A DNA stretch of 64,000 nucleotides, from the NCBI GenBank assembly GCA_001724265.1, contig MEDY01000050.1, positions 1-64,000 on the forward strand, in the 5' to 3' direction. This DNA comes from Rhizaria sp. SCN 62-66 (taxonomy: Eukaryota). This document shows, piece by piece, positions 200 to 62,433 of the stretch (the first letter of the stretch is position 1; every line of letters starts with the position of its first letter). A program made the translations under genes and the position numbers. The notes under the pieces were generated by a model that worked only from the letters and a program-made list of their open reading frames with translations, was not told where the DNA came from and searched no databases.

Positions 200-836
200 A
201 GTGTTTTAACCCCACCCGCACGAAACACAATGCTCTGCCCCCTTATATAACGGGGGGAGAAATCTCTCTTCATCTCCTTTCCTCTTCGAATACGGACCAT
301 CTTGCAGTGGTAGTAATACAACAAACTTACTGAAATCCCAATCTCTCTCGTCATCATGCCAACTTCTATTTGACTTTGCTGGGCGTTGCACAATCGTTGT
401 ATAGCGCTATAACTTGACTCTCAAGGATGATCTGAACTTGGACTTAATTTGTTTAATATTATCATCGCTCATATCGCACGTCTCCCTCTTCTACGCACAG
501 CGGCGATCGGCACCTTTTTGACCGACGTTCCTCGCAACCCTTCGTCCTCTCTCATGAGAGCGATCTGACGCCACAAACACTCTCTCCAATCAACAAGAGA
601 CGGTTGTAGCATATTTCCTTTTTGGTTGATTGCTATTTGCTGTTTTATTACGCTATAACTGCGTATCCGCGGTTGCTATGACGCCGCCCTCGCGCGCCCT
701 CGTCGCTCGCCATCCCAAAGCAAACAACTTCAAAAGCGACATCCGTACAGTCACAATCGATTCCAGTTGTCGATCGATCTCCCCACACGCTACTAAAACT
801 AGTTTAGCTGGCTTCTGTGGTGGTTTCAAGCGGAGT

Positions 837-1116
837 ATGATTTCGCTCGCTTTTGTTGGGCTCTTGCTACTCTCGAGCCTTGCTGCGACTGCTGCAGTTG
901 GCGCAACGACAGACAAGCCAGCTGTGCGTCCAGTTGACCCCACTGCGAGTGGCCATCGCGGTGCTGCCGAGAGTCCGCTACAGCTGCAGCTGTCCGTTGA
1001 TGCCCTGCTGTCTTAGTACGTAGGCTGCTTCAGCAACCCAGCCTCAGATCCCAGCTTCACGTCGTCTTTTGCGCTTCTGTCGCATCCAACACTGCTCTAT
1101 CTGCAACAACAATACC

Positions 1117-1154
<38 letters not shown>

Positions 1155-4100
1155 GCACAAGAGCAACAGCATAAGCAGAAACAGCAACAGCAACAACACT
1201 CGTCGTCATTGTCGCTGTCACTGTCATTGCCCCCGCGGCTGGTAGAGCTGTGTATCTCCCTCTGTCACGCCCACGGTCACTCATTCGCAGCGGTGGAGCA
1301 AGCCTCCCGTTGCTATTGCGCTCAGGCGCTGCCACGGTCACGCTTTACTGTCGCTACGACTAGCAGCAGCAGTGAGAGCAAAGCGTCTTCAGACGTGACC
1401 ACGCCACCATAGGTCAGTGACCTCAATGTGTGCAACACGAAGTGCTTTGATCCGAACGCGCAGCTTCGCAATGTGGGTGCTTCGAGTGGCATTGAAAGGC
1501 CCTGGGTTCCCTGCGGAGGCGTGAGCGCGGCCAGTTTGTACAGCACTGCGGTTGCGGGACCTCTCCTGCTGCGCACAGATGGGGCAAGTGGAGAGGAACT
1601 GACAAGCAGTCGCAGCAAGGCGAGCACGAATGATGTTAACAACAATGATGGTGATGATGCGGGTGCTGTTGAGACTGTGACGCTGCCGTTTGTGACTGTC
1701 ATCGTCCACGCTGCCGCCGCCCCTGACGCGGCCACCCCCTTTGCTCACGGTCACCCGAGCGCCCGCAGGCTTCCGCAGTCTCGCTCTTAGTCTGCCAGGC
1801 GGTCACGGACGCTTGTTGGCATGACCGAGCGAGAGGCTGATGCAGCTGAGGCGTACATCGAATCACTTTCCAACACAAAGAACAGCAACCAGAATTCAGC
1901 AAGCTCCGCCGCAAACCCGGCTCTAGTTAGGCCGCCCCCGGATGTGGTGTCGAATGCGGTGTGGTACCGCAAGGCGTCGGCCGTGGCGGCGACACTGCGC
2001 ACTGTGGCTCCAGTGGGTGTGAGCAGCAGGAGTCACAAAGCGAAGAGTGCTGAGACGAAGCAAGCTCACGACAACGTTGATGATGGTGATGAAAATGTAT
2101 GTGGTGATTTTGTCATGGTTTTGTGGGAAGACAGCAACAGTTAGAATAATGACAGCAGTGCAAATCACAATAGCGATGACTTCGATGTAACTGTGAACTC
2201 ATTGACTGATGCACTGACAGGCCAACCCCCCATTAGTCTCCTGAAATCACTCTTTCCCAACGACAATGTCACTCAAAGTCAAGCGGGTTTAAGTCATAAG
2301 AACGGTGTTGGTGCCGTTGTGTTTGCTCCGGGCAACACCACGATCACCACTGCATCGACTGATAACCCTGCGAGTAATGCCGTGCATGCTGTGTGGCGTG
2401 CGCGTGACTTTGTCAACACTGCGCTCGACACGCTTGAAGCCTCCGTTATGTCATTGTCATTTTCGCAAAATACGCCTAAAAATTCGCATAGGCGCTCAAA
2501 TGAGAAGCGTGATAAGTTTGACATTTGGTCAACAATGTTCTCGTCTTTCTCGTCGCCTGTTGCAACTGCATCAGCGATCGTGACTGTGACCAGTGACAAT
2601 GACTATGATGTTAACGTCAGTTTGAGTGAGAGTAGCTCAAGCGCGAGTGCTGTGCTGACCAACAAATTGCGAGTTCTCTGGCAGTCGCAGTCGCAACAGG
2701 CGCGCTCACAGACGCAGTCCGTCACAGCTGTTGATGCTACCACTGCGTCGATCCGCGCACGGCAACAACAGTTAGCCACGAGCTACGCACACCGTAATGC
2801 GCTTAAACGCGCACGCAAAGACGGTTCAGCTAGAGACATCACAACAAATAAGCTTGTGTACAACACTGCGACTGGAACGTACACGAACAAAACCATCACA
2901 AAGAAGAACGTAAAAGGGAATAATCGCTCTGTAAAGAGGCGATATAACGTTGTTTTTGAGCATTTTGCGTTCTTACTTCGCGCCGATGAGCTGCCCTTGC
3001 GGTGTCAAGTGATGCGCAAGTCCCTTACGCAGCTGTCATCTCAAAGCAGCGCTGGTACTTCTGAGAGACAAAACGCATTGTCATCCGACTTTTTCGGCCC
3101 CGCACATGGTGCGTACGCACTGCCGATGTGGTCTGGACTCAGCGACGACACAACCGAGCGTTATCCGCTGCAATCTGATCTCTATGTCGTCCCTTCGCAA
3201 TCGCATTTTAATAACTCTTCTGCTGGAAGTTCTCGGATTAGTACCCCTTCGCAGTCTCAGACACACAGCAATACTTATAGCAACGATGATATTCTCGCAA
3301 ACAAGCGCGCTGCCGCTGAAGCCGCTGCCGTTGCGGCAGAGGCCGTTGCCGCCAAGGCTGCCGCGCGCGCAGCCGCGACCGCTGCATTCGCCACAGCGCC
3401 CGGCCCCGTCGCCTTTGCGGGCTCACTCCTCCCCATGAACGCAAACATGAACGCTGACTCCAAGTCTGCGTCTAATCGCTCTTCTGTTGGCGGGATAGTC
3501 AGTGCTACTATTGCCGCGGCCCACGGCGTCCTCGTCGTTGGCGACCCCGCCGCGAGCGGGCTCGGCGCCCCGCGGGCCCCGCGGCTGCTGCGGCTGACGC
3601 ACCGGTGGCGAGTGCGCGGCGCGCTGGCCGACGTCGCGCGCCCGCCGTGGTTTCCACTCCACAAAGCGGCGCCGGCAGTCGCACAGTCAACCGCAACCAA
3701 CAATGGCTCTGATGTGGATAGGGGCAGCAGTTTGGGTGTCGGTATTGAGGTGTTGGCGCTGTGTGACCGCTGGCTCGGAGCTGAGGCCGCTGCAGTTGCC
3801 GCTGCTGGCGAAGCAGGCGCGCGCGCACCGGGCCTTGATGTCAGCACTGACGAATACGGCGTGCTTAAAGCACAACAGCATCAGCATCAACACAGTAGCT
3901 TAGGCTCTGCATTGAGAGAGAAACTGTACTTGGATTTGCCACCCTTACATCGCCCTAGCGGCAGTACGGTTCTTAACGCGACAAATACCTCTCTCTTCTC
4001 CGCAATGACACGCTCGCAGTGTCTGGCGTACCTCTCGGCCCACAGCCGCTCACTCGCGCTTGCGGCGACGCGACCCCCGTCCTTGCACGCCGCCGCTCGG

Positions 4101-6897
4101 CCCTACTGCGTCGCCGCCCACAGTCACTTATCTCCGACTGCGGCCCACAGTTACAGCCAGAGTCAGAGTCGCTTTGGTGACAGTGCTACGATGGCTGTTG
4201 TGAAGGCGGGCGCACAATGCTCACAGGGAGCTCTCATTCATCTCCACGCTCAAGGTAGATAAACTTAAGAAATCGCACTTATTTCGTTTAATCAACATCA
4301 TTTAGCTTTTATTTATGTTTAATCTCTTACAAAATTTGTTTTCTTATTGCTTTTGTCTTGTTTTAGCTTTAATCACTGCGGGTATTCTCTCGGATCCCTT
4401 TGACCTGTCGCTCCCCCTCCACTTCCCCACCGCACGCTCACAGTCTCTGAGCAAGCCTTCACAGTCGTCGTCGCTTGCGACTGTGATTCCCCTGTGGGCC
4501 CCGCACGCCCCCGTGGCGTCCCCGCTGGCGTTGTCCCGCGCCGTAGAGCACTGGGTCCACACCTCCGCCGCCGCCGCTGCAGCCACCGCCGCCGCCGCGG
4601 CCGCCGCAGCGGGCGCCGGCGGCGGCACCGGGCTCAGCGGCGGCGGGCGCGGGTTCAGGCCCGTGCCTGGCGCTGCGCTCACGCCCGGCGTCGACACAGC
4701 CGCGAGCGCTGCCAATGCAGCCGCGAATGCAGCAGTGGAGGCAGCGGCGGAGGCGCAGGCGCATCGCGGCGCGAAAGGCAACAGCGGTGGCGCGCAGTCT
4801 GGCACTAAGAGTGTGAATACCCGTCGCGTCACTGTCAGAGCGACCGTGGGCGTCAGCAGTGGCACCGTGGCCGCGTTCGGCGACCTATCAGCGCCCGTCT
4901 CGGCCTGGGCCGGCGCGGCGAACGCGGCGGCGACCGCGGCAGCGAGGTACGTCAAGCGGGCCAACGCGGCCGCCGGGGCTGCGGGGGCCGGCGGCGGGCA
5001 CGATCACGACCACAGTGGCGGTGGCGGCGACAGCGACGACGACGATGACGAGAAAGAAGAAGAACATGAACATAATCTTGAGCACAGTGATTCGCAATCG
5101 CATGCGGTGGCAGCAGCGCAGTTGCCGCCTTTGACGCCCGCAATGAACGCTTTGGCTGACAGCACTGCGCCGTACGTCCCGCCGCGGCTGAGTTTGCTGC
5201 TCGCGCGGCTTAACTTAAAGATCGCGCGGTGCGTCCGTGTCGCCATGACGATCGCCTGGCTGGCCGCGAATCCTGAGTTCCCTTCGAAGCACCACAAGAC
5301 GAAGCAGCTGCAGCAACAGCAGCAGCAAGAGCAAGAGGAGCGGCAACGCATGCCACTTTTCGACGGATCCAAGTACTCTCTAAGTCGCGCCTCTAAATAC
5401 CCTTCCCTGTCTAAGTACCCCCATCTAAGTGCTTCCTACTTCACCCCCGCGGACGCCCTGCCCTTCGCCTCCACGGCCACGCGCTGGGCCCGGCTGCTCT
5501 TGGCCACTGCGGCGTGGGAAATGGACCGTTACACTGCGCTGTACTACTTAGCCGTGGCGAGCGAGGAGGCCGGCGCGGAGACTGGGGACTACACCGAGCC
5601 CCTTACACTGGCGCTGGGGTACCTACACCGCGAGACCACGGCCCCGCTGTGGCTGCTGGAGCGCACCGCCGCTGCGCCGCTAGGGGACATCCACCAGGTG
5701 CACAACACGCTTGAGTCGCTGCAGACCCACTGGGCGGCCCGGGTTGCGCGCGCGCGCGAGGCGTCGGCCACCGCGACGGCGATGACGCGCGCACTCGCAC
5801 TCTCGGCCCTGAGCTCGAGTGACAGCAGTGGCCACGATGGTGACGATGAGTTGGCCAATAGTAGCAGCGGCGGCGGCGGCTGGGGCGTGTTGCAAGAGCG
5901 CGCGCTGCTGCTGCTCGACGGTGACGAGCCCGCGTCCTCATCCCCGGTCTCCGGGTCCGGCTCCGGCTCCAGCGCGACCTCAAGCGGCGGCGGCGGCGGC
6001 GGCATGGCCGTGGGCGGGTGGGAAAAGGGCGGCGGCGGCGGCGAGCGCGGGCAATACCGCGCCCCGCTTGCGGTCGCGGCCGCGGCGCTCGTGGCCGGAG
6101 ACTGGGGCGGCTGCGTTGGGTGGAGCACCGTGGCGCTGCTGTGGCGGCCGGGGCACAAAACCATCGGACACAGCAAAGGCAGCAGCAAAGACAGCAGCAA
6201 AGACAGCAGCAAAGACAAGAACATCAACAACAACGAGGACAAGCGCGTCGATAGCGACGGTGATGAAGACTTTGTGTATGCTGACGGGTACTCCGACCAG
6301 GACGAGTACGACGGCGAGGCCGCCAAAGCGGTCGAGGAGGCCGGCGCGCGGCTGATGTGGGAGCAGTGCCTCAAGTACCGCGCCCGGCTCGTCAAGGGCG
6401 AAGCCGCCGCTATCTCCGCCACAACCGCGGCTAAACAAGACGAACACGCTGCCAATATTGGGGTTATTGGTCAAGGGAGTGGTTTGCTGGAGGAGAGCGC
6501 CCGGAGTCTCCGGCGCCGGCAACGCGAGAAGCTGGGGCAGATCAGTTTGGCCAGCCTGCTGCCTTCACCCGCGCTGCCAGCGGCGCACAGCCAAACGCGC
6601 GGGGGAGCCGCCGTCGCCGTGCTTGGGCTCGCGATGCTCGCTACAGTTGTTCTCGCGGTGCTCTGGGCGGCGGGGCGCGTGCCAGGCGTCGGCTGGGGCA
6701 AGCGGGGGAAGAGCAAGCGGAGTGAGAGGGAAAATGGTGGCGGTGTTGGGATGGCAAGCGGCGAGGGCGTGAGGTTGCGTAGGGATAGGAGCGGGGTTCT
6801 GGGCGATTACAGCAGTAGTGACAGCGAGGAAGAGGACGGCAGCGCTGATGGGGCTCCGATCAGGCGCAGGCAGAATCAAGACCTGCAGCTGATGTAA
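837..6897 (+). CDS. WSC-domain type I membrane/secretory protein, ~1982 aa, with four in-frame TAG codons
   Basis: join(837..4254,4367..6897). Signal peptide MISLAFVGLLLLSSLAATAA. WSC motifs YVGCF...VELCISLCHAHGHSFAAVEQASRCYC...CNTKC...CGG...SLY all lie in one frame across TAGs at 1014 and 1410; further in-frame TAGs at 1788 and 2142. Intron 4255..4366 (GT..TTTTAG, phase 1) joins the next ORF. C-terminal TM segment AAVAVLGLAMLATVVLAVLWAA followed by basic residues. Ends TAA. Confidence 0.75.
1116..1154 (+). repeat. (CAA)13 microsatellite encoding polyQ inside the WSC domain
   Basis: Perfect CAA run read directly; in frame between YVGCF and the CxxxC motif. Confidence 0.9.
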
Positions 6898-18300: not shown

Positions 18301-18827
18301 CCGCGCGCTCGCTCTCGGCGCCGCAGCCCGACGCCAGCGACGCCTTCACCCTCGCCTCGGTGACGCCCGCCGCGCTGGCCGCGCTGCCCGCCGCCGCGGC
18401 CGCGGCGCTGCTGGCGCAGTTCGACGCCGTGCTGCTGCTGTCAGGTGGCCGCGGCGACATGAGCGAGAGCGCGCGCAACCCCGTCCCCTCGTTCAACAAC
18501 AACAACAGCTCCAGCTCGAGCTCGAGTGGCTCTAGGTCCGGTGGGCGCCGCGTGCTGTTCGCCGACTCGGCCGACGTAGTGCCCGTCGGGACCAACAGCA
18601 GCGACAACGTCGACAACGGCGGCTTCGGCAGCGCCACGGGCAACGTGCCGCTGCTGCGCGACCTGATGCTGGCTTACGTCGCCAAGGGCGGCTCGCTGGT
18701 AGCCGAGGCGGAGAACTGTGTGCTGTCGAGCAGCGCGCTCGACGGCAGCAGCCTCGCCTTCCGCACCAGCGCGCCCACCGTCGCGCCGATCGACGACGAG
18801 GAGACCGTGGCCGCGCCCGCCCTCACC

Positions 18828-18879
<52 letters not shown>

Positions 18880-21191
18880 GCAGCAGCAACAGCAAGACCG
18901 GCGTGCTGAGTGCGCTGCGGTACACGCAGGCCGACGCGCTGGCGGCGAGCTACCGCATCAGCGCCAACACCAGCGCCGCCGCCATCAGCAGCGGCGACAG
19001 CGACCCCAACGCGGGCGCCACCGCCCCGCTGCGCATCTCCAACACGCTCCCCGCCGCGCCCCCCGCGCCCTCAAGCTCTGGCGCCGCGACTGCGAGTGCA
19101 AGTGCTGAGCTGGCACACGGCGTGCTGTTGTGCCCGCCCGTGCCGTCGCCGCTCGCGGGCGATATGCCGCAGCTGCACTGGCTCCTGACGGGCACCCGCG
19201 ACGCTAACGGCTACGACAACAGCACCAGCAGCACCAGCAGTAGCGGCGATAATGGCAGCGCTGGCGCGGCCGCTCCGGCCGCGACGGCCACCGCTGCTGG
19301 AGCCGTCGCCGGTGCTGCGGCTGCGGCCGCAGCTGCGACGGCCGCGACGACCGCAAGCGGTCTGGTGAGCACCACGAACCTGACGAGCGTGGACGGCGCG
19401 GCCTCCGCCGCCAACGGCAACGACAGCACGATCGGCCTCCTGGCCGCCGCCGCCTCCGCCGCCGTCTCCGCCGCTAACAACAACAACAGCAGCAGCAGCA
19501 GTGAGAGCAACGGGAGGAAGGACCCCAACGAGGAGTCGGTCGACGACATCGCTGCCACGATCACCGCCCTCAACACCGAGGCCGCCGCCCTCACCCCCGC
19601 CAGTAGCAACAACAACAACAGCAGCAGCGGGAGCAAGGCTGTGGCCGCCGCGGTGGGTCCCGGCGCGTGCTTCCCCTCTCTGGTGCCGCACTGCTACCTG
19701 CGCCTGCCGCCCGCGTCCCGCACCCATCGAGGCCTCTGGGCCGCGACCGCGCCCCTCACCGCCGCGCCCCTCGCCGCCGCGTCCGCCGCCGCTGCAGCCC
19801 AGTCAAACAACGCCAATGCCCGCACCGACGCCCAGTTCATCTCTAGCGTTAGCTCTAACCCTCGCTCCAGCTCTAGCTCTAGCGCAGGCACGGCGGTGGT
19901 GGCCGCGGACGGCAGCGCGCGCGGCCGCAGTATGGGCGTCGCAGTTTTTGCCGAGCCCGGCGCGGCGGCCGCCTCTGGCGCGGTGGGCGGTCAATGGCAC
20001 CACGTGATCGAGTGCGACGTGCTGCTCGCGCTGCCCAGCGACGCCCTCGCGCTCGTCACCGCCTTCACGCCCGCGCCCGGCTACTCCGCCGCCGCCGCCA
20101 CCAACTCCGGCCCCCCGATCGTCAGCAACATCCCCACGGGCGGCGGCGCGGGCGGTAACGGCAGGAGCGAGCCCGCGCTGGTGGCGGTGCCAGTGCCGCC
20201 CACAGTCGCCAGCACCATCCGCGGCGTCGTCGCCGCCTCGCCAGTCACCTCCACCGTCCCCCACGGCAACAGCAGCGCCGGCACCGGCGCTGGCGGCGTG
20301 ACGGCGAGCCCCAGTAGCCCTAACGCTGCCGCGGCCGCCGCGAGCGCGAGTGCGAAGAAAGCCAGCCGACGGCCGCTGCAGCGCGCGCTGTCGCCGCTGG
20401 TGCCGTGCGCGTCTGTCGAGCTGCTCATCCCGCCCGTCCACAGCGTCTCGCTGCCGCACTTGGCATCGCTGCGCGCCTTCATCGCGGGGCCCTACGCGCC
20501 GCGCACCGCCGCCGCCGCCGCCGCGCTCGCCGCAGCCGGCTTCCCCATGTCCTCTCAGTCTGCGCAGGCCTCTGAGACGCAGGCGCTGGCGCAGGCGCAG
20601 CTGCCGCTGGTGCTGAAGCGCGTGTCGAACCCGCGCGCGGCGACGGGCGCGGCGGTGGGCGGCGTGCGCGCGCCGGTGTACGACGTGTTCGGACTGGCGC
20701 GGCGCGACTTCGTGGTTCCCGCCATGGACCGCCAGGACGAGCCCATCGTGCTGCAGGACGACAGCAACAACACCGCGCACACCAGCACCGCCGACTCGAG
20801 CGCGAGCAGCACGGCTGTGGCGACAACCGCGGTGGCTGCTTCGACTGCTGCTCCTGCTGCTGCGGCTGCGGTTGACTTGCGTCGCTTGGCGCCCGTGCTG
20901 TCCCTGGGCGCGCTGGACGACGCCGTGCACGCGGTGCTGGGCCAGACGGCCGGCATCGAGACGCGCGGCCTCACGCGCGGCGGTAGTGTCATCTTCACCT
21001 CTTTCTCGTTCAACCGCAGCGACAGCTCGATGAGCGCGCTCGAGCAGCAGATGGCGCTCGCGCTGATGCTGCGCGCCGGCCGCAGCTCCGCCATCCGCGC
21101 CGAGGGCGACACGCGCCGCGTCGTGCTCGGCGACGCGCACGCTGTCGTCAACGTCTTCAGCTTCGACAACGCCACCGCCGCGCGCGCGTAA
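12390..21191 (+). CDS. Large BTB/POZ-BACK-like domain protein with Cys-rich segments, ~2710 aa
   Basis: Model join(12390..12473,12580..12611,12686..13796,13959..14411,14584..17181,17337..21191); all junctions are GT-AG and keep frame, but the first two exons are tentative. BTB motifs: FADTLL, VHRAVLASRSPIL, AFQIFIAHLY, LLELANFFDVPAIRTL. BACK-like motifs: HLALPFEVFHALL, LCASEPVVAEAIWAWI. Ends TAA. Confidence 0.75.
18828..18878 (+). repeat. (AAC)17 microsatellite encoding poly-Asn
   Basis: Perfect AAC run within the last exon of the BTB gene. Confidence 0.9.
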
Positions 21192-36147: not shown

Positions 36148-36153
36148 GAAGTG

Positions 36154-36226
36154 TGTAGCTTGGGGGCATTGATCCCCCTGCCCCGCGCATGCTAAGCGCA
36201 TACTCTACCATCTGAGCTAAAGCCAC
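36154..36226 (-). tRNA. tRNA-Ala (anticodon AGC)
   Basis: Minus strand GTGGCTT-TAGCTCAGATGGTAGAGT-A-TGCGC-TTAGCAT-GCGCG-GGGCA-GGGGG-ATCAATG-CCCCC-AAGCTAC-A gives a 73-nt cloverleaf with the G3:U70 alanine identity pair and A73 discriminator. Confidence 0.95.
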
Positions 36227-36774: not shown

Positions 36775-39700
36775 TTAGAGGCCGTGCATCTTAAGCGCGG
36801 CGTCGAGCCGTGCGCGGACCTGGGCAAACTGCAGCACAAAGCCCCTGGTAGGGTAGTACATCTTGCCCGAGAGCTCCTCTGCCTTGGCGAAGGCGCCGAC
36901 GCCGACGTCCAACTGCGGTGGCAGGCCCCACAGCGCGAGCGTCTCGACAGCGTGGCGCTGCGCAGGAGTAAGAGCGGCCTGAGAGGAAAAGAAGTGAACA
37001 GAAGACAAGAGAACGTTTAGAGACATACATGAGCTCAGGAGACCAAATTAATTGTACAAGATAGTATTTAAAGTGAAATTATCCTAAAATAATCAGGTTT
37101 TGTTTAATTTGGACTTGTTATGAGCGAGATATCTCCCGAAACATACCTGGCGTGCGGCGATTTCGTCGGCGCTGAGCGCCTTGTCAACGGCGCCGGCCTC
37201 GCTGGCGGCGACCGTGGCGTGCGCCAGCGGAGGCACCTCGAGCGCGATGAGGCGGCGCAGCGGCTCGGCCACGGCGCGCGCGTGCGCCACAACGGCGGAG
37301 CGGATGCGCGCAGGCGTCGCAGAGAGTGTCTTTGCAAGCATCGACATGCTCAGCAGCATCGCTTGCTCGTTGTAAGCGATCGACGCCGCAGCAGCCTGAG
37401 AGCAAAAGATACGAGAAACAACGAATAAAAAGAGAAATCAATTGAAGATGAGTTAAAATAAAGGTACAATATATAAGTTCTGAGAAGATTTAATCAATAT
37501 ACGTTGTTTTGTCCCCCCTTCCTTTGTTCGTACCTGGCGGGTGCCGCGGAGCTTATCGTAGCCGGCCTCGTTGTAGTAGGGCTCATTGAGCCCGATGACG
37601 AGGCCTTGGAGCGAGACGATGAGCTGCAGCAGGTTCGAGTGCTGCGCGTTCCAGTTCTGCGTGCCGTGTCCATCCCAGGTGCCCAACAGGGAGAGGCAGA
37701 CGCGACCCGTGTCGTAGAGGTTGGGGTGGATGCGCGTGCCGTACGACGAGAAGACGACCTTGGGCGCGCTGTTGGGGTAGTCGGTCGGCAGCACGACGTG
37801 GAACTCGTACACGCCGTGCGCGTAGGGCGTCCCAGCGGGGCCCGCGATGAGCACGGTGAGCGTGTCGATGCTCGTCTCGTAGCCGTAGATGTGCACGCCT
37901 GGCGGGCAGGACGAGGCCAGCTGGCGCCACTCGGTGTGCACGCGCTTCGACAGGGCCGGGGACATGAGCGCGGCGGGGAACGCGGTGCGCGGGGCGGGCG
38001 CTTCGGTGGTCTCGAAGCCGCCGAAGACGGCATCCGCAGGCACGGGCTCCGTGCTGATCTCGACGGTCTCCTCAACAGGAGAAGTAGCAGCAGCACCAGC
38101 GGCGGCGGGCTCAGCCTTAGCCGCGTCAGCAGCAGGAGCCTCAGTAGCAGCCGCAGCAGCAGCGGGCTCAGCAGCAGCGGCAGCGGCGCCGCTGACACTA
38201 GAGCTCGAGCTGGCTGCATCAGCGTTCGCATCAGCGCTCGCGCCGTCCTTGTTCGCGCTGGCGTTGGCGTTGATGTAGATCTTGCCGTCGGCGGCGCTGG
38301 CGTTGACGGCGAGCCCGTGCGTGCCGGCCTGCTGCGCGATCTGGTTGTTGAGGTTATCCTCGTTGTTGTCGGCGTCCTCGTTGGAGATGACGTAGATCTC
38401 CCACGGCCACACGCGCGAGAAGGTGCCCTGCGACCACTTGACGAGCAGGAAGCCGTGCTCGATAGCCACGATGCAGCCGCTCCACTCCTTGTGCGAGCAC
38501 GTCTCCGTCACGGGCATCAGCCGCACGACGAAGTCGCCGATGTTAACCTCCTGCGTCGCGGTGCGGATGTCGTACACAGAGACCTCCTGCACGGGCGTCG
38601 TCACATACGTCACGCCGTCGGTCACCGTGATCTCGTACGCGTCCACGTCCACCTCCATCGCGGGAGGCTCCGTGCTGGGCGCGTTGTTGTTGCTGCCGAA
38701 CGTCACGTCGCGCACGGCCTTGCCCTCGGCTGCGGCCTTGGCCTCGATGCCCGCGCGCCAGTCGGCGAGCGCCTGCGCCGCGCCGCCCGCCCACGCACTG
38801 TGCGCGTTCTCGGCCTCGTCACTTCCCACGGCGCCCACGGCGGTGCTCGCGCTGCCGCTGCTGTGGTCAAGGATGCTGTTGTTGTTGGTGCTCTTGTTGC
38901 CCGAGCGCGGCGGTGCGGGCGCGTCCTTGTACTGGCGGATCCAACGCACGTACGCCGTCTGCTCGGGCGCGTCCATCTTGACCACATAGCCCGTCAGCGC
39001 GCAGCGGGCGCCGCCGCGGATGACCTCGGCGCGCGACTCGATGAAGTCCATGGCGCAGTGGTCGAAGTCCTGGAGCTGGTCGCGCGGGATCAGGTCGACA
39101 GCGGGCACTTCGCGCGAGATGGTGCCGTCCTGCCACAGCACGTCAGCGACCGTGCGCGTCTTGAACACGCGCGCAATACCCAGGCGCCAGCACGTGTTGA
39201 GCTGCTCGGGGGTCTTGGTGGGCGCGGCGGCGGCGGCGGTGGCGGCAGCCTTCTTGCCGGCGGCGCCCGTCTTCTTGGTGCCGAGGGCGGTCTTCTTGGC
39301 GGGCTTCTTCGCGGCCGCAGCGGTCTCAGTCTCAGCAGCCTCGGCGTCGGCCTCAGGCTCGGCAGCAGCAGCGGTGGCAGAGTCGGCGTCGGCGTCGGCG
39401 TCAGCCTCGGGCTCAGCGGCGGTGGCAGCGGCGGCCTTCTTGCCGTCAGCGGCCCCGTCCTCGTCGTCCTCCTCGCCATCAGCCCCGGCGGCGTCGCCGT
39501 CGGCGGCGTCGTCGTCGGCCTCGGCGTCGTCGCCGAAAAGCGTCTTGGTGTCGGTGTTCTTGACCGAGCGCGGGTCATAAGGGTACTCGACGCCCTCGAA
39601 GTCAGCAACAGCCTAGAACGATAAAACAAACAACAAGATACAAGAAGCACAAAATGTGAGATTTTAGAAGTATATATATAACAAACTATTAAAATAACGT

Positions 39701-40982
39701 GAATAATTTGGTTTTGAGTGCGAGAGATTCATCGTCGTATAGTAATTCTAATTGAAAAAAAAGAAGAACGCACCTTAACCCACTCGGAGACGCTGTCGCC
39801 GCAGTAGAGCTTGGCGAAGCGCTTGCGGAGGCGCGCGGGGAGGTACACACGGTCGTTCATGGTCATGTACACGTGATCAAAGGGATCGATGTCGACGAGC
39901 CGGGCGGGAGAGATGGTGGCGTCCTGGTCCAGGTCCGCGTCCTGCTTGAGCACGGCGACCCACTGCATCTCGACCGACTTGGTGGTGACCTGCGTGACAG
40001 TGCCGCGCAGCGCGGGCTGGCCCTTGAACATCTTGGCGGCGGCGGCGGCGTTGCCCTCGAGCCATGTGCCCTTCTGCAGCAGCGCGGCGCGCGTGACGTC
40101 GACGACGAGTCCCGGGTAGTAAAACATGTCGGGGTCCTCTGGCTCCAGCCCGGACTCGCGCTGCACGGGATCCACTTCGTCGAACTCGGGCGACGCAATG
40201 TCCACCACCAGCTTCGGGCCGAACTTGACCGTGACGTGCGCGCTGCCACCCAGCGCCGTGCCCACCTTTGCGTGGTCGTCCGTCGCCACGAAGACATTGG
40301 GCCGGCCCCACAGGTGCACGCGCTGCAAGATCCAGCTGGGCACGCACGGCAGCACAATGAAGCGTTTCGGGGGTGGGCCGCGGGTCTTGGCGGTCTTCTT
40401 CTTGACGGGAAACTCGAAGACGAGGTCGCAGTAGACCTTGGCGTTGGTGACGATGCCGAACGACGACACGGGGCGGGTCGCCCAGGCCACGGGGCCGCCG
40501 GGGCGCATCGCGCGGTCCACGAGGCGCAGGCGTGAGTGGTGGAACGGGGAGACTTCGCCGTTGATGTACACGGCAGCCTCGCCCTCGTTGAGCGGGACTT
40601 CAGGTTCCTCGTCCTCGTCTTCGTCTTCGTCCTCGTAGCCGTCCTCGTCCTCCTCGCCCTCGAAGCCGTCGCCGTCGACCGCGTCGACGCCGTCGCCGTC
40701 GCGGTTGCCGCCGCTCGAGGAGAGCGTGCGCGTGGGATTGGTCGCGTTGTCAACGACGGTAATGCTGTCGCCCGCGGCGTCGCCGTTGTAGTTGCCGTCG
40801 TCGTCGCCGAAGTCACCGTCATCCTCTGGCGCGCCAGAGTCCCAGGCAGTGTACTCGACGACGCCGAGCGTGTGCGGCCGCGCCTGCTCGTAGACCAGGT
40901 CGCCCTCGTAGAACTGGGGGAAGTCGCGCGACACGGGCGCGCCGGCCGCGGGGTCGGCGGCGGAAGCGACAGGAGTCGACAT
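36775..40982 (-). CDS. UBE2O: UBE2O/PHO2-like E2-E3 hybrid ubiquitin-conjugating enzyme, ~1246 aa
   Basis: complement join(40982..39774,39612..37534,37395..37147,36978..36775), all phase-0 GT-AG introns. N-terminal LRLVDR..RPG.PV and TRTVADVLWQDG motifs. UBC domain GPAGTPYAHGVYEF..LPTDYP..PKV, RIHPNLYDTGRVCLSLLGTW (catalytic Cys), LLQLIVSLQGLV..EPYYNEAGY, SIAYNE. Ends TAA. Confidence 0.9.
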
Positions 40983-41592
40983 GGCGGGGTTAGACGCGTG
41001 AGCTGCGTTGGGTGATTGAGAGGTTCAGGTCTGGGAAAGAGAGAGAAAAAAAGCTTCTGTTTAAGAGCAGGATGGGCATATGATTGAATGAGGATTTACT
41101 GTATAAAATAAAACACATAAAATCAAGGGGTGGAGAGAGCAACGATACACAATGGCGACCAGATAAATCTGCAACAATACCCGCAATGAACCTGCTGCCG
41201 CACGGACCGCTCGTTCATGATTGTGGCCACAGTTTTTTTCGGAACCGAGGGTGGGGGACTGTGGCAGCAGCTCGATGGCGAGGCACTCAAGGGTCCTCGG
41301 ACCGGGACCCACGGTTATTGGACAGGCCGCCTAGATCGACTTAAGGGTACCAGGGTCGCGCGGAAACGCCATGCAAAAGACAAAATGCCTTGACATGACT
41401 CATATGTGCTCATTTCTGTGTCCGCAAGATGCAGACGAAGATCTTCCCACTCTCTAGCAAGCCAAACCAATTCCAAGTGGATCTCTATCACGAGTCCGTT
41501 GTTTATCCAGTTTCCATTTTGCCCACGCTCACGCACCCCTGCCATCATGTCCCGTGTATTAATATTCCTTGCTGCGCAACTGCTCAGGCGCT

Positions 41593-55227: not shown

Positions 55228-58200
55228 TTACCGCATCTGATGGTGGTGGTGCAGCAAGTGGCCATTCCCCCCTTGCTGCTGCTGCTGCCTGTTCACGCCA
55301 CCGCCGCCGTAGCCGCCGTGGCCGCCGCGGGCGAGCGCGATGGCGGCCTCCTGCAGACTGGCGACGTCGTCGGCCATTGCGTGCTGGTCCTCGCTCATCA
55401 TCTGGCTCGGCGCGTCGGTCGGGGGCGCGCCGCCGATCTCGGTTGCCGCGTCCACCGCATTGGGCGCCAAAGGAGCAGCGCCCGCGACGCCGTCGACCTC
55501 GGAGTTGCCCTCGCTGCCGCTGCCGCTGAAGCCAGAGCCGGCCTCGGAGCGCGGGGCCACGCCGGGGCCCGAGGCGCGGGTGCTGCGCCCGCGGGTCTTG
55601 CTCGCGGCGCCGCCCTAAGTCAGGAACAAGAGGCGAAACACAGAAATAGTGAAAAAGCAATCAAATGAGATGAAGTAAGAAAAAACAGAGTCGGAATACA
55701 ATTTAAAAGAAATGAAACAAACGAATCATAAAATTGAAACGAGTGAAAATAAATATAAATGTTTTTTAAATCATATTTTTCTGTTTTGCGTACCTTTTGG
55801 CGGAAGCCCGCAAGGCCGAGCCCGAGGCCGATGCCGGAGCCGGTGGGTCCGCGCAGCGGTGACGCGGCGGCGGCGTCGGGGTCGAAGCGGTCGCCGCCCT
55901 CGCCGTAGTCCTCGTCCTCGTCCTCGGGCTCACGGTCGTCGTCATCGTCCTCGTCCTCCTCTTCGTCGTCGAGCGGGTGCCTGTGCCCGCCGCGGTGCTT
56001 GCGGCCGTGGCGCCCGCTGCCGCCGCCGTGGCTAGAGCTCACGCGCTCCTCGTCCTCGTCCTCGTCCGCCGCGGCCTCCGCCGCCGCCTCGAGGTATTCG
56101 GCGCCCGTCGTCGCGCTAACCACCGCACCGGGGGACCGCATCGACTCAGGGTCAGGGCTCTGGACCGCCACGTCGATGATCCGCACGCGGTTCCTGTTGT
56201 TACCGTTGCCGTTGCCATTGCCGTTGCCGCTGCCGCTGTGGCCGCCAGTCGCGCGCTTGGGGGCGAGCGCGGCGGCCACCGCGTCGTCAGTGCTGTGCGG
56301 GTGACCGTGACGGCTACTGCTGCTGCCGTTGTTGTTGTGAGAAGGGGATTTGGTCATGGCGACTGAGAGACCTGCGATGCCGCGCTTCGCGGCCGCGGCG
56401 TTGGCTGCAGCGTTTGCGTTGGCGGCGGCGTCAGCGTCGGCCTCGGCACCGGCGCCGGCGTGCGCGTTGACGGTGGGTGCGGGGATCGAGGTCGAGGGCC
56501 GGGAACCGACGCTGATGCGGTGCGGCATCGCGGCGGCGGCGGCGGCGGCGTTGACGCTGATGACGCCGAACAGGTCCACGTCGTCCACCGTGACGGCAGT
56601 CAGTGCTGCGTGGTCGCCGTTGTCGTCAGCGAGGATGTCGCCGGCAAGGCTCTTGTCGACACCAACAGCAGCGCCGCTGCTGTGCGCCGCCGCGTCGCCG
56701 GCCGTGGCTGCGGAGCCGCCGCTGCGGCTGCGGTTATGGTTCCTGCCGCTGCCGCTGCTGCTGCTGCCCGCCGCCGAAGCCGTCGCCGCGGCGGTCGCTG
56801 TTGCGGTCGTCGCGGCCACAGGTACCGAGCCGGAGCCGGAGCCGGCGCTAGAGGCATCGCCAGCGCCAGCAGCGCCAGCGCCAGCGGCGGCGGCGGCGGC
56901 AGAGGCGGGGACTGCGATGTGGCGGTCCGAGCCGACGGGGCTAGCGTCCGGCGACGGGGACGGCGAGATCGAGACGGCGGAGGCCGCGGCGACGGCGGCG
57001 GCGGCGGCCGTGGTAGTCGTGCGCCGCGACAGTGACGGCTGCGACGGCGGCTGCTGGTGCTGCTGGCCGCTGGCGACACTGCTGGCGCTGCTGGTGACGG
57101 CGTTGTTGTTGTTTGCGGCAGGGACGGAGCCGGCGGCGCTGATGATCGAGCCGTTGCGCGAGGCCGGTGCGACGCTGGCGGCCGCGGCGCCCGCGGCACC
57201 GGCGGCGAAGCCCGGGGCGGCTGCGGGGGCGACTGCGGCCTCGGAGCGGCTGCCGCGGCTGCTGGCGCGCTCGGCGGCGGTGCTGTGCAGCGGCGAGGCG
57301 TTGCCCGCGGTGCTCGTGTTTGCGTGCGTGCCGATGGCGTTGTTGTTAAGGTTGTTGAGGTTGAGCCCGTGCGCGTGTGTGTTGAAGCTCGAGTGTGAGA
57401 TGTTGGACCCGGATCTCGGCATCGCGGCGCCAGAGGCCACGTCGCTCGCCACATTGTTGTGACTGTTGTTGTTGTTGTTGTTGTTGTTGTTGCCGTTCGC
57501 GTGGCCGTTGTGGTTGTTTGTGGTGACGAGCGACATGCCAGTCGTGCTGCCCGCGTAGTTGGCCACGCTGCCGTTGTTGACCGTGCTGCCGGCCACCGCA
57601 GGGGCGCGCGCAGTGGCGACCCCGAGGCTCACGCCCGCCGCGGCCGCCGCGGCCACGGCCGTCGCGCCGTTGATGAGCCGGTGTGGCCGCCCGCCCTCCT
57701 GCCCGTGCGCGCCCATGCCGCCGCCGCGGCCGCCACCGCCGCCACTGGCATCGGCGCCCGCGGGGTGGTCCGGGGCGTCGAACTGTCCGGAATAGCCGAA
57801 GCCGCCGTAGCCGAACGAATCCTCGTCGAGCGGCTCCAGCGCCGTGGCCGGAGCCACCCACTCGCTCGTGCTGCCTGCGTGCGCGCTCGACCGGCGCCGG
57901 TCGCGGCGCGCCGTGGAGCCCGCCGCCACGGTCACCGTGACGGGGGACCCCGCGGCGACGCCCGTGGTGTTAGCGGAGGAGCGGCGGCGCGCTGAGTCGA
58001 GGGCGGCGCTGTTGCTGCCGCCGTTGTTGTTGTTGTTGTTGCTACTGTCGGCGGGCTGCATGACCAGGAAGCCGCCGATGCGCGTGGGCCGCGACGACAC
58101 GCTGTCGCGCTCACGGTCACTCTTGCTGTGGGCCGCAGCCGCGCTCGCGCTCGCGGTGTTAGCCCCGTGCGCGTGGCTGTCGCGGACGCTGGCGTCCTTG

Positions 58201-61019
58201 GTGGCGCCGCTGGCGACACTCGCGCGCTCACGGTCACCCGCGCGGTGCTCACGGTCACCCGTGCGCTCACGGTCACGGTCACTGCGGCGCTCACGGTCAC
58301 CCGTGCGTTCACGGTCACCCGTGCGCTCACGGTCACCCCGCGGCTCACGGTCACCACCGCGCTCACGGTCGCGGTCGCTGCGGTGCTCACGGTCCTTGCG
58401 GTGCTCACGGTCACCGCGCTCACGGTCGCTGCGGCCACTCTTGCGAGCAGAACTGCCACCGGCAGCGCTCGCGGCAGCGGCAGAGTCAGCGGCAGAGGCC
58501 TGGAGGGGCTTCGTGGGAGTACCAGACGCAGTCGCCTTGGTCTTGTCTCTGCTCTCGCCCTTGTCCCTGCTGCTTTTAACCTTCTCTTTGTCAGCAGCGG
58601 CAGCCGTGCTCGTGTTGCGCCCGCGCCCGCCGTTGTCGCCTCGGCTGCTCTCGCCGCCGCCGTCGACGGGCGTGGCGCCCGCCGCCGCGCCCGTGGCGCC
58701 CGTGGCCGCGGTGGCGCTGGCCGTGAGCGGGTACGGCGACAACCCACCCCGGTCGTCGATGCCGTCGTGCTCGCCCACCGTCGTCGCCGCCGACGCGCCG
58801 GAGTCGAGCTGGTCCTTGCTCACCGGGGACGCCTCGGCGCCAGTGTTGCCGTCGGCGGGCACGCCCGTAGCCGTCGCAGGGACCGGGGTGCCGTTGCCGT
58901 TGCCGGCGCCGCAGGACTGGTGGCGGTTGCTTCTGCTGTTGTTCAGAGTACCAGTCGCGGTCGCAGTGCCAGTCGCGGTCCCGGTCGCCGTCACGGGGGT
59001 CCCCGGCTTGTTGGGGGTCTCCGCCGCCGCGGCGGCCGCCTTGGCCGCGACGGCAGCCTTGGCGGCCTCAGCGGCGGCGACCTCGGCGGCGGCGGCGATG
59101 ACGGCGGCCGTGAGCGCCGCGCCGCGCGCCGTGGGCTGCGCGTTGGGCGCCCGGATCGCGGCCACGCCGGCCGTCGGGTCGCCCTTCTCCTGAGCCTCGC
59201 GCCAGCGCTGTGTGGCCACGGCGGCCGTCAGGTCGTACCACTGCCCCGCGAGGTAGCGGTCAGGCGCGCGCACGAGCCCTGAGGCGACCATAATGGCAAC
59301 GTTGGACAGCAGCCGGCGCGCGTAGGCGAGCACGACGTTGTTCTCCTTGTGGACCTCGATGGCGGCACGGACGAGCGCAATAACAGAGCCGTAGATGATG
59401 GGCTTGGTGCCCTCTGGCGGGTGCACGATGGGGATCATGCCGGGCAGCGTCGTCGTCACCACCACGGGCGCCGGCGGCGCGGGCATCTTGTGCGGCGCGT
59501 CCGCGGCGGCCGCAACAGCAGAGTGGGGCTTCGCAGAGGCGTTGACCGCGTTGGCGGTGTTGTTGTTCGCATCGCCGTTGACGCTGTCGACGCCGCCGTC
59601 GTCACCGCCGCCGCCAGCAGCGCCGCCGTGGGCGTCGGCGTGCATGTCGCGGTCAATGCGCGCCGGATCCAGCAGCGACTTGTCCTTGAGGTACCGCTCG
59701 AAGGTCTCGGGCACGCCCCCCGGTGCGGCGGGCCGCTGCGGGTCCCCGGGCTCGCAGTCGAAGTTGTCCAGATACTCGCGCGCGATCTCTGCGTCCACAG
59801 CGGCCTGATCCGCTGGGTCCCAAAGCCCCAGCGCGGCGCCGAGGGTCTTGCCGGCCAGCTCGGCGGCCTCGGCGGCCACGGCCGCGGCGGTTGCGGCCGC
59901 CGACTCGACCGCCGCGGCGGCCTCGTCGTGCAGTCTCTGCTGCTGGGCGGGGCTGGCCTGCGCGTCGGATTGACTGTGCTTCGCGCTCTTGTTGCCACTG
60001 CCGCTGCCACTGCCGCTGCCACTGCCGCTGCCGTTGCCGTTGGAGGCGAGCGTGTCGTCGATGTGCGTGTTGAGCAGGCGGCGCGTGCCGTGGCCGGCAC
60101 TGTCGGCCGTGATGGCCATGATTGACGCCAGCGCGGGCGTCGCGACGGCGGCGCACAGCAGGTGCTTGGCCAGCGTCGAGGCCAAGGTATCGAACACGCC
60201 GCCCTGGCCCAGGGGACCGATGGCGAGCAGCACCTGGTAGCTGGACTTGACCAGCTCGTTAGTGGGCTACAGCACGGTCGAGAAGGTGATGACGTCGCTG
60301 AGCAGCGCGGGCACGCCGGCGTCGACGGCCGCCGCGCGGTCTGCGTCGTTGGTGACGAGGTAGCGTACCAGGTCGCAGGCGTGCGTGGCGATCGACGCGT
60401 GCTCCTTGCCCTTGCACGCGCGTAGCGTGTCGCAGCAGATCGCGAACACCGGCTTGTGGCGCGTGATGGACATGGCCTTGGGCTCGCCGCGCGCGCAGCG
60501 TGTGACCTGGGAGATGGCCCGCAGCACCCACTCGCGCGCCTGCAGCGTGTGCACCGTGGCAAAGGCCGCCGTGAGCAGCGGCACCACGTCGGTGATCATC
60601 GCCGCGCGGTTCTGCTCCGTGCCGCCGTGCGACACGTTGACGATCGTGGTGCAGTAATGCCGAAGCATGTCATCCGAGAGCGCAGACACGTTGCGCAGCT
60701 CCTGCGTCGCCGTGGCGACTGACTGCGTGAAGGCTGCGATGCGGCGCGCGCGGCGCGTGTCGTGGCCGCAGTACGCCATCGAGTCCGAGTGCAGCGACGA
60801 CGCGTCGCCTTGCTGGGTGCGCGTGATGGTGCGCAGAGGGCCGCCGAGCGGGGTCGAGTCGGGCTTGTAGTCGTCCCCCGCGCCGCCGCCGCGCGCGCCG
60901 CTGCCGCCGGCCGCGCCGTTCGCGCCGCGGGGGCGGGACTTGCCCCCGTTGCGCGCGCGCTGCTTGGTGTTGCCACCGGAGCTGCCCTTGCCGCCCGGAG
61001 TGCTGCCGCAAGCGCCCAT
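55228..61019 (-). CDS. N-acylated armadillo-like helical protein with long disordered C-terminus, ~1870 aa, with one in-frame TAG
   Basis: complement join(61019..55794,55614..55228). ORFs 60267..61019 and 55620..60233 share a frame and are separated only by TAG 60269..60267 (FSTVL*PTNELVKSSYQVLLAIG). MGACGS N-terminus. ARM-like helices include HACDLVRYLVTNDADRAAAVDAGVPALL. Intron GTACGC..CTGACTTAG. Ends TAA. Confidence 0.72.
58225..58430. repeat. Imperfect tandem repeat built on GCTCACGGTC(AC), encoding GDRER/DREHR mixed-charge repeats
   Basis: About 11 units of 15-24 bp, each containing (C/T)TCACGGTC; translated on the minus strand as SDRERGDREHRKDREHRSDRDRERGGDREPRGDRERTGDRERTGDRERRSDRDRERTGDREHRAGDRER. 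Confidence 0.85.
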
Positions 61020-62433
61020 GCTGTAGCTGTCGAGTCTGCTCTCTCGCTCTCTGTGGGCGCGCTCTGCTGACTGTGTTCTCTCTGGGGCTCGCTGGCGCTC
61101 TCGCTGTTCGCGCGCTAGTCGGGGTGCCGCGGGGGAAGAGTTACGCCGCGCTGCTGGGCTGCTGCTGAGCTGCTGCGGGGGGTGATGCTGGCACGCGGCG
61201 CCGAGTCAAAGGGGCCTCTCTCTAGGCTAAGTGGGCGCTTAAGGGGCGCGATGAGCTGGCGTGTGCGGGCCGGGGGCGGAGAGCGGCTGGGGGAACCGGA
61301 CGGCGCGCGCGGGAGAGGGGCCGAGGCTGCCTCGGAGCGTGCGGAGAAGCGGCGCTCGCGGACGAAGGCACGGGCGGGGGAAACAAGGCACACGGGATTC
61401 GGAGGTTGCTGGGCCGTGCGTCTGTCCGAGCCGCGCTTAACGGAGAGAATTCAGAGGATAAAAGAGGCATGACAGTGAGATACAGGGTTAAAGAACATTA
61501 AGTGATTACATGTAGCGGAAAAAAGGAGCAGCAGGTGCTAAGACTGCGGCTTGGGACGCATGCGGAAGGAGAGGTATCTGCTTTTCGCCGACCAGTGGAG
61601 CATGCATACGACTTCGTTTAGCACGCCACCTGAACGCGTAATTCGCATTGCAGATGAAATTACGGAAGGCAACTACATATATTGTGACAGAGGCTATCTA
61701 AATTCACCGTCAAAATTTCGCCGAACGACGCCAATGCCAAGAAATGCACGGCCTAACGAATTCAACTCCATACCATCGCTCGACGCTGTGTGCAGACACC
61801 CCTCATAGTAATCCTTTTACTCTCACTTGTGACTGACAGCCCAACTGCTCGCCAACCGACGACGTGTCGGCGATTCTTTGAGAGTGCAGTGGGCCTTTTT
61901 TTGTCCGATAACAAGAACATTGCCGACTGTTTTGCGCTTTTTGCTATGCAATTTATATGATCCTTATTTTGTTTTTCTTGTAGTGCTTAGCATTCTGTGC
62001 CGGCAACATCCGAACCGTGGCCCACTCGACGGTCAAGCTCGCAATGCGTTGGTCCTCTCTCTCACTCGGTCTGTCCCCTTTCTTCCCCGCTTTTTACTAA
62101 TGCCACTTATTTTTCGGACATCTCGAAGTTAGTTTACTTATCTCAGCGATTGGTTCACTGCTATCAAGCTTTTCCTGACGTCTATCGCGTCACCCCTCTC
62201 CTCCCAACGGGTGTCTCCGCGCAGCAACCGCCGCAGTCACTCGCCGCTGTTTCACGCTCAGGCCGCTGCCATAGCGATTGCAACACCTGCAGCGCGCTCT
62301 GCCTTTGCTTGGCACCTGCAGTCGTAGGGCCCTCGCGGCTACTCCTTGTTGTTTCGCGCGTCCAGCCCTACTACACTCTTGCGTCACGACATTCCATCAC
62401 AAGCTCGCGAACAGGCGTTTCTCTCACACAACA

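Follow-up and report, generated by a model that had tools for sequence, protein, structure and literature searches.

Nuclear genetic codes in which UAG is the only stop codon to have acquired an amino acid are described for the rhizarian exLh, where UAG specifies leucine and 384 UAG codons were counted in 71 genes (PMC5304391), for Iotanema spirale, where it specifies glutamine, and for phyllopharyngean ciliates, where it specifies either leucine or glutamine (PMC5304391, PMC11687900). These codes prefer UAA as the terminator (PMC5304391, PMC11687900). In filamentous ascomycetes, premature UAG codons are reported to be corrected by A-to-I editing in certain life stages (PMC11156358, PMC10776026); the fungal editing prefers a U before the edited A, so that UAG is often hit (PMC11156358), and 71 such "pseudogenes" have been described in Fusarium graminearum (PMC10776026). 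The present analysis concerns an in-frame TAG in the gene of an armadillo-repeat-like (ARM-like) protein, encoded on the minus strand of a 64,000-nucleotide (nt) stretch of DNA (contig MEDY01000050.1, positions 1 to 64,000, deposited as Rhizaria sp. SCN 62-66; the window is this whole stretch), and a second gene of the same window, here called the comparison gene, which carries further in-frame TAGs. We regard it as evenly balanced whether UAG is translated in this organism, by recent reassignment or by efficient suppression. This reading is preferred because the sequence downstream of the TAG of the ARM-like gene is intact and conserved, because the TAG is the sole allele seen, because the second gene contains TAGs only and no frameshift, and because no well-defined gene end uses TAG.

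The ARM-like gene comprises 1,870 codons in two exons, and the TAG is its sole defect, with no other stop and no frameshift in the frame and with its intron correctly in phase. A 250-codon open reading frame (ORF; 61019..60270, minus strand), which starts with MGACGS, ends at this TAG, beyond which a further 1,548 codons follow in that frame without a stop. The initial annotation had described two ORFs in one frame with a single TAG (60269..60267) between them; this was borne out, and the peptide quoted for the site, VITFSTVL followed by the stop and by PTNELVKSSYQVLLAIG, is exact. Its 1,537-amino-acid (aa) downstream ORF is indeed an open frame, the lower count running from the first GTG and not from the TAG, but the last ~58 codons of that frame belong to an intron and not to the protein. 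The intron is supported by its sequence and by the fact that similarity to protein P0002, the closest relative, picks up again in exon 2 at the P0002 C-terminus (E 5e-8). The absence of an ATG or an AT-rich intron adjoining the TAG was likewise confirmed, the first in-frame ATG 3' of it lying 50 codons downstream and no AT-rich stretch standing beside it, as was the statement that GC-rich, codon-biased sequence continues on both sides. The upstream and downstream flanks score 0.69 and 0.66 bits per codon, respectively, the median of true coding windows being 0.52, and the frame of the gene obtained the top codon score in all four segments tested. Stops of any frame that have 50 or more open codons to either side number 192, and only for the TAG of the ARM-like gene do both flanks look like coding sequence, a result with which smaller windows agree; its occurrence is therefore more than chance.

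Relatives of the ARM-like protein were sought exhaustively with a profile among 1.84 billion representative proteins. Eight members of the family were found, and since two of these are parts of the window protein itself, six relatives were aligned; narrower homologue searches gave one match at near length and three at shorter length. Because no gap opens at the TAG when the six relatives are aligned, and because P0002 is colinear with the window protein over residues 62-1455, with the last exon aligning to the P0002 C-terminus, the two ORFs that flank the TAG are, as judged from the alignment, one gene. The alignment of orthologues at the site, which had been put forward as a check in the initial annotation, shows that the TAG column is Asp in six of six relatives, within the motif L-D-x-x-N-[DE]-L-V-K-S; the TAG and the next two residues read X-P-T in the window, whereas the relatives have D-[AGS]-[DNE]. 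Three residues after the TAG, the most highly conserved block of the family begins, and identity to P0002 amounts to 59% before the TAG (111/187) and to 76% after it (53/70).

An AlphaFold2 model of residues 62-341 folds into a 12-helix solenoid, with a predicted local distance difference test score (pLDDT) of 80.6 and a predicted template modelling score (pTM) of 0.75, and in it the TAG falls within the loop that joins helices 8 and 9. Since the most conserved block follows the TAG and the TAG lies within the solenoid, a product ending at codon 250 would lack this block and would stop inside the solenoid, comprising, if the model is right, two thirds of it without the conserved core. The predicted right-handed all-helical solenoid resembles armadillo-repeat proteins such as beta-catenin, APC and the designed ARM proteins. 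In a Foldseek comparison with the PDB the best rows are armadillo-repeat proteins (template modelling (TM) score 0.50-0.57, 12-15% identity, E 2.7e-3 or weaker), and the top 50 rows listed are almost all ARM proteins with a TM of about 0.5, with no match at E <= 1e-3. Unlike armadillo-repeat proteins, this family of eight representatives has no Pfam Arm match, nor did any other Pfam family match the ARM-like protein. The term ARM-like is fair for the modelled fold and makes no family assignment. The N-terminus reads MG[AV]C in five of the six family members that include it, a start that looks like an acylation signal. P0002 (1,331 aa) begins at the position that corresponds to residue 62 of the window protein and does not have this start, and its gene call may have been cut at an upstream in-frame stop.

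Two local ways of disposing of the TAG were tried and rejected. A 16-nt GT..AG stretch that contains it was considered as an intron, but its removal breaks the frame, and the relatives align there gap-free; a compensated frameshift around the TAG was also considered, and the other two frames yield no Asp-containing match.

The TAG is real and common to independent samples. A base-call error had been named in the initial annotation as a possible refutation, and the occurrence of the same TAG allele in independent assemblies contradicts it. The public contig L001 (2,711 nt) is identical to the window across the 261 nt aligned, TAG included; a contig of 2,708 nt from runs X2 and X3, the identical figures of which probably reflect one data set, spans 60004-61300 with no difference; and a contig of 660 nt from run X4, which belongs to a different study and whose library is labelled RNA-Seq but flagged as probably DNA, spans 59816-60460 with no differing letter. 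In addition, the exact 250-aa ORF ending at the TAG has been recorded from seven contigs. The TAG is thus the sole allele seen in seven contigs from at least two studies, bearing in mind that contigs can drop rare variants: no intact allele, that is, no other letter at the site, was found in the covering contigs (X2/X3, X4 and L001; run X6 gives no cover there), which for the same reason does not prove its absence. No close strain variant with a sense codon at the site was present among the homologues of the near-length, shorter-length or exhaustive searches, and a metagenome scan for the relatives' DNA returned L001 only, the DNA of P0002 not being found. None of the four runs compared shows a splice joint that would take out the TAG, and a single letter differs among them over ~2 kb, at 61128.

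The same gene contains a Gly-Ser repeat at ~59990-60040 (minus strand), at which insertions or deletions of 3 and 12 letters separate contigs of other runs from the window, suggesting that the repeat varies in length. It is of low complexity, and many unrelated contigs pile up on it. Another assembly contains protein P0009, which agrees with the window between a point just past the TAG and this repeat and diverges thereafter, probably owing to a mis-join at the repeat.

The comparison gene, which has a signal-peptide-like start at 836, holds all of its TAGs within its first 505 codons. In this part a first-order composition model predicts 3.7 TAG, 3.0 TAA and 8.4 TGA, and 4, 0 and 0 are observed. 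The probability of finding neither TAA nor TGA is ~9e-6, and the 630-4259 frame therefore is or was coding, without frameshift; the other five frames of 630-2144 contain 9-24 TAA plus TGA. Random nonsense mutations in this gene would produce TAG in 38-41% of cases (32% if only transitions are considered), so that the probability of four TAGs out of four is 0.02-0.03 (0.01 for transitions), and a rough estimate for the all-TAG, frameshift-free state under neutral decay is <1e-3. The initial annotation held that a second gene, 58 kb away, supports systematic UAG decoding. The support stands: the 1,210 codons contain four TAGs and neither TAA nor TGA and are free of frameshifts, and TAG is lacking at the gene ends described below; the word "systematic" does not, in view of the absence of TAG from the other long ORFs of the window.

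Two further sources of the pattern were rejected. Mutation resembling repeat-induced point mutation (RIP) does not account for the TAGs of the comparison gene, whose indices (TpA/ApT 0.71-0.75; (CpA+TpG)/(ApC+GpT) 1.23-1.32) are like those of intact genes. Many antisense frames in the window that are rich in GC at third codon positions (GC3) are interrupted only by TAG; such an antisense-frame artefact was dismissed for the ARM-like gene on account of its homologues and for the comparison gene because the strand opposite to it carries no long ORF. The comparison gene may run, via an AT-rich intron, into an 863-codon ORF at 4306-6897.

The use of stops at gene ends was assessed at 19 ORF ends, of which 12 that are GC-rich up to the stop were counted and seven that run into AT-rich sequence, probably introns, were set aside. 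The 12 well-defined gene ends use TAA nine times, TGA three times and TAG never, despite a GC3 of 0.75-0.9; the single ORF that ends in TAG (33085) does so in an AT-rich, intron-like tail and is among the seven set aside. If TAG normally ended 20-30% of genes, none in 12 would be expected with p 0.07-0.01, on what is a small sample. In these respects the window is like the described UAG-only codes: UAG alone is found in frame, UAA and UGA terminate, and TAA prevails at gene ends, from which TAG is missing.

According to the preferred reading, the ARM-like gene would be a live, full-length gene in which the UAG of codon 251 is translated. UAG would have become a sense codon either because the stop was recently reassigned to sense or because a natural suppressor acts on it efficiently, with UAA and UGA continuing to terminate, and it would still be very rare, having arisen only at fast-evolving, weakly constrained sites such as the remodelled loop of the ARM-like gene and the variable N-terminal region of the gene at 630-4259. 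The evidence suggests that ribosomes read through the UAG of codon 251, which is the step that we infer. Codon-capture models predict a stage in which a codon is reassigned but almost unused, a stage rarely caught in a nuclear genome. The more specific proposal, namely that UAG no longer serves as a terminator and is efficiently read, as an early sense capture in an undescribed GC-rich lineage common in wastewater reactors, with the invariant Asp column hinting at an acidic residue, is put forward tentatively, as possible but somewhat doubtful.

A number of observations weigh against translation of UAG. The five in-frame TAGs of the window are confined to two of its 18 long ORFs. Were TAG read as sense, no further pair of long coding ORFs would be joined among the remaining 16, and six of these 16 would be extended by 2-48 codons of AT-rich, non-coding-looking sequence; TAG is therefore absent from the 12,946 codons of these ORFs. 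The resulting spread is uneven (4 in 505 codons of the comparison gene versus 0 in 12,946; Fisher p 2e-6), and within the comparison gene itself the next 705 codons have none. The codon scores around the TAGs of that gene are weak (-0.45 to 0.37), with a GC3 of 0.57; no homologue was found in the sole length band searched (665-2,118 aa); and the Pfam WSC match (PF01822; residues 189-241) reaches 21.0 bits (E 4e-4), below the cut-off of 27.8. The eight-cysteine pattern of the WSC domain would presumably span the TAG at 1410. The base after the stop (+4) is T, G, T and A for the four TAGs of the comparison gene and C for that of the ARM-like gene, so that there is no common context, and no significant RNA structure was detected around any of the five (z -0.04 to -0.95), the values for the ARM-like TAG being z -0.13 for 61 nt and z -0.78 for the 120 nt downstream. 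No suppressor tRNA is encoded in the window, the sole tRNA of which is Ala-AGC, and no RNA contig crosses the TAG: the polyA run X6 covers 59299-60192 and 60371-60533, but not 60232-60308. The single alignable site also counts against the reading, as its column is invariably Asp, we know of no code in which UAG is read as Asp, and the loss of an invariant Asp also fits decay. Unlike the described UAG-only codes, with several UAGs per gene, often at conserved Leu or Gln columns, this case lacks their defining feature, which is abundant in-frame UAG.

Several of these points can be accommodated by a recent nonsense allele under the normal code, in which case the ARM-like gene would yield the 250-aa fragment, or nothing after mRNA decay, as the result of a young event in a nearly clonal population. 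Because ~70% of random nonsense mutations in this gene give TAG, the kind of stop carries no information when the ARM-like gene is taken by itself, and the avoidance of TAG elsewhere in the window is what would be expected of a codon that is shunned in frame like a stop. Not only the invariant Asp is lost but the two residues that follow are also off the family pattern, and the near-zero variation between runs would fit clonal fixation of a mildly harmful allele. A single premature stop in a conserved gene, of the type expected in a GC3-rich one, is also how an ordinary nonsense allele or a young unitary pseudogene would appear. Unlike a young pseudogene, however, the gene shows no further lesion in the 1,619 codons downstream of the TAG, where codon bias and conservation are undiminished; TAG is two base changes away from either Asp codon; and no alternative allele has been seen. 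Moreover, a nonsense allele in the ARM-like gene leaves the TAG-only, frameshift-free state of the second gene unexplained, and it leaves the lack of TAG terminators to chance. On this evidence we consider a recent nonsense allele rather unlikely, although it is the strongest competitor of the preferred reading.

Tolerance of in-frame UAG together with its avoidance would also be explained by an ambiguous code of the kind found in Condylostoma, in karyorelict ciliates and, for UAA, in Blastocrithidia, in which a stop codon both terminates and is translated. In contrast to the present case, in which UAG is nearly absent from reading frames and ends none of the well-defined genes, such codes use these codons abundantly in frame. 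Leaky termination could instead be specific to the ARM-like gene, under the standard code, with near-cognate tRNAs decoding the stop at a low to moderate rate so that mostly the 250-aa product and some full-length protein are made. A C at +4 is the leakiest eukaryotic stop context, and this is the base that follows the TAG of the ARM-like gene; the maintenance of the downstream reading frame would also be accounted for. However, the CARYYA motif of tobacco mosaic virus (TMV) type is absent, the next codons being CCC ACU, and neither around nor downstream of the stop is a stable structure predicted. The stop, which is codon 251 of 1,870, also falls within a folded domain, whereas known readthrough extensions sit near the 3' end, and the lack of a context shared by the five TAGs is a further difficulty, which together make gene-specific leakiness improbable.

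Restorative RNA editing, in which the A of UAG would be deaminated in the mRNA and UAG converted to UGG (Trp), would account for TAG being the only stop found in frame, and the genes edited in ascomycetes are similar to the ARM-like gene in being intact but for an in-frame UAG and conserved downstream of it. However, a significant hairpin is found at none of the five TAGs and Trp would be a poor replacement for an invariant Asp; furthermore, the X4 contig reads A at the site, although its library is probably DNA, and nothing places this organism among the ascomycetes. We judge editing to be very improbable. Errors of sequencing or assembly, or the removal of the TAG with a small intron, are scarcely credible: no supporting point was found for either, the letters are the same in L001, X2/X3 and X4, no joint crosses the site in the four runs, the relatives are gap-free, and the known introns of the window are unlike the GC-rich surroundings of the TAG.

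As regards its general organization, the window is eukaryotic, with long GC-rich exons set within AT-rich spacers, and the introns identified in it are AT-rich, of GT..AG type, and 161 and 179 nt long. The stretch was recovered from bioreactor, wastewater and activated-sludge metagenomes in eight studies, and the source organism is therefore uncultured. The coordinates of the two genes and of the only RNA gene are collected in Table 1. Among the neighbouring genes, one at 37453-41024 (minus strand) encodes a UBE2O-like ubiquitin-conjugating enzyme, with Pfam UQ_con and UBE2O SH3 domains; it is split by the 161-nt AT-rich GT..AG intron (39773..39613) and has at least one more intron near 37490. 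Two long GC-rich ORFs on the plus strand, at 14584-17226 and 17271-21191, are in different frames and ~45 nt apart, the first having a tail rich in AT; a single gene of more than 2,100 codons, without a Pfam match, probably includes both as exons.

Table 1. Positions of the features discussed, numbered along the window.
Feature	Position	Strand	Remarks
Comparison gene	630..4259	+	1,210-codon frame; TAG at 1014, 1410, 1788 and 2142; TAA 0, TGA 0
tRNA-Ala (AGC)	36153-36226	-	Sole RNA-family match in the window; within an AT-rich spacer
ARM-like gene, exon 1	55794..61019	-	1,742 codons including the TAG; start ATG GGC GCT TGC (MGAC...)
ARM-like helical solenoid (predicted)	60042..60767	-	Protein residues ~85-326, 12 helices
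In-frame TAG, codon 251 of the ARM-like gene	60267..60269	-	Aligns to the invariant Asp of the relatives
ARM-like gene, intron	55615..55793	-	179 nt, AT-rich, spliceosomal GT..AG; donor AAG/GTACGC, acceptor TTAG/G (slash, splice site); frame shift of 2
ARM-like gene, exon 2	55228..55614	-	128 codons (55614..55231) and TAA at 55230..55228

To our knowledge, nuclear codes in which only UAG has become sense are restricted to a handful of protist lineages, and those described are all "finished", in that their genes each contain many UAGs. No report of an altered code of this kind in a eukaryote from wastewater or activated sludge was found in a literature search that was not exhaustive. If the TAG of the ARM-like gene is a nonsense allele, the case is an ordinary one, that of one recently broken gene. 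If UAG is translated, this organism would join the UAG-only nuclear codes and would be notable among them for its scant use of the codon. There is also a consequence for annotation, as gene callers split genes of this organism at TAG, and the 250-aa fragment stands in the databases as a separate protein. Should the reading hold, the start of a stop-codon takeover would be made visible here, at a point at which UAG is translated and yet hardly used.

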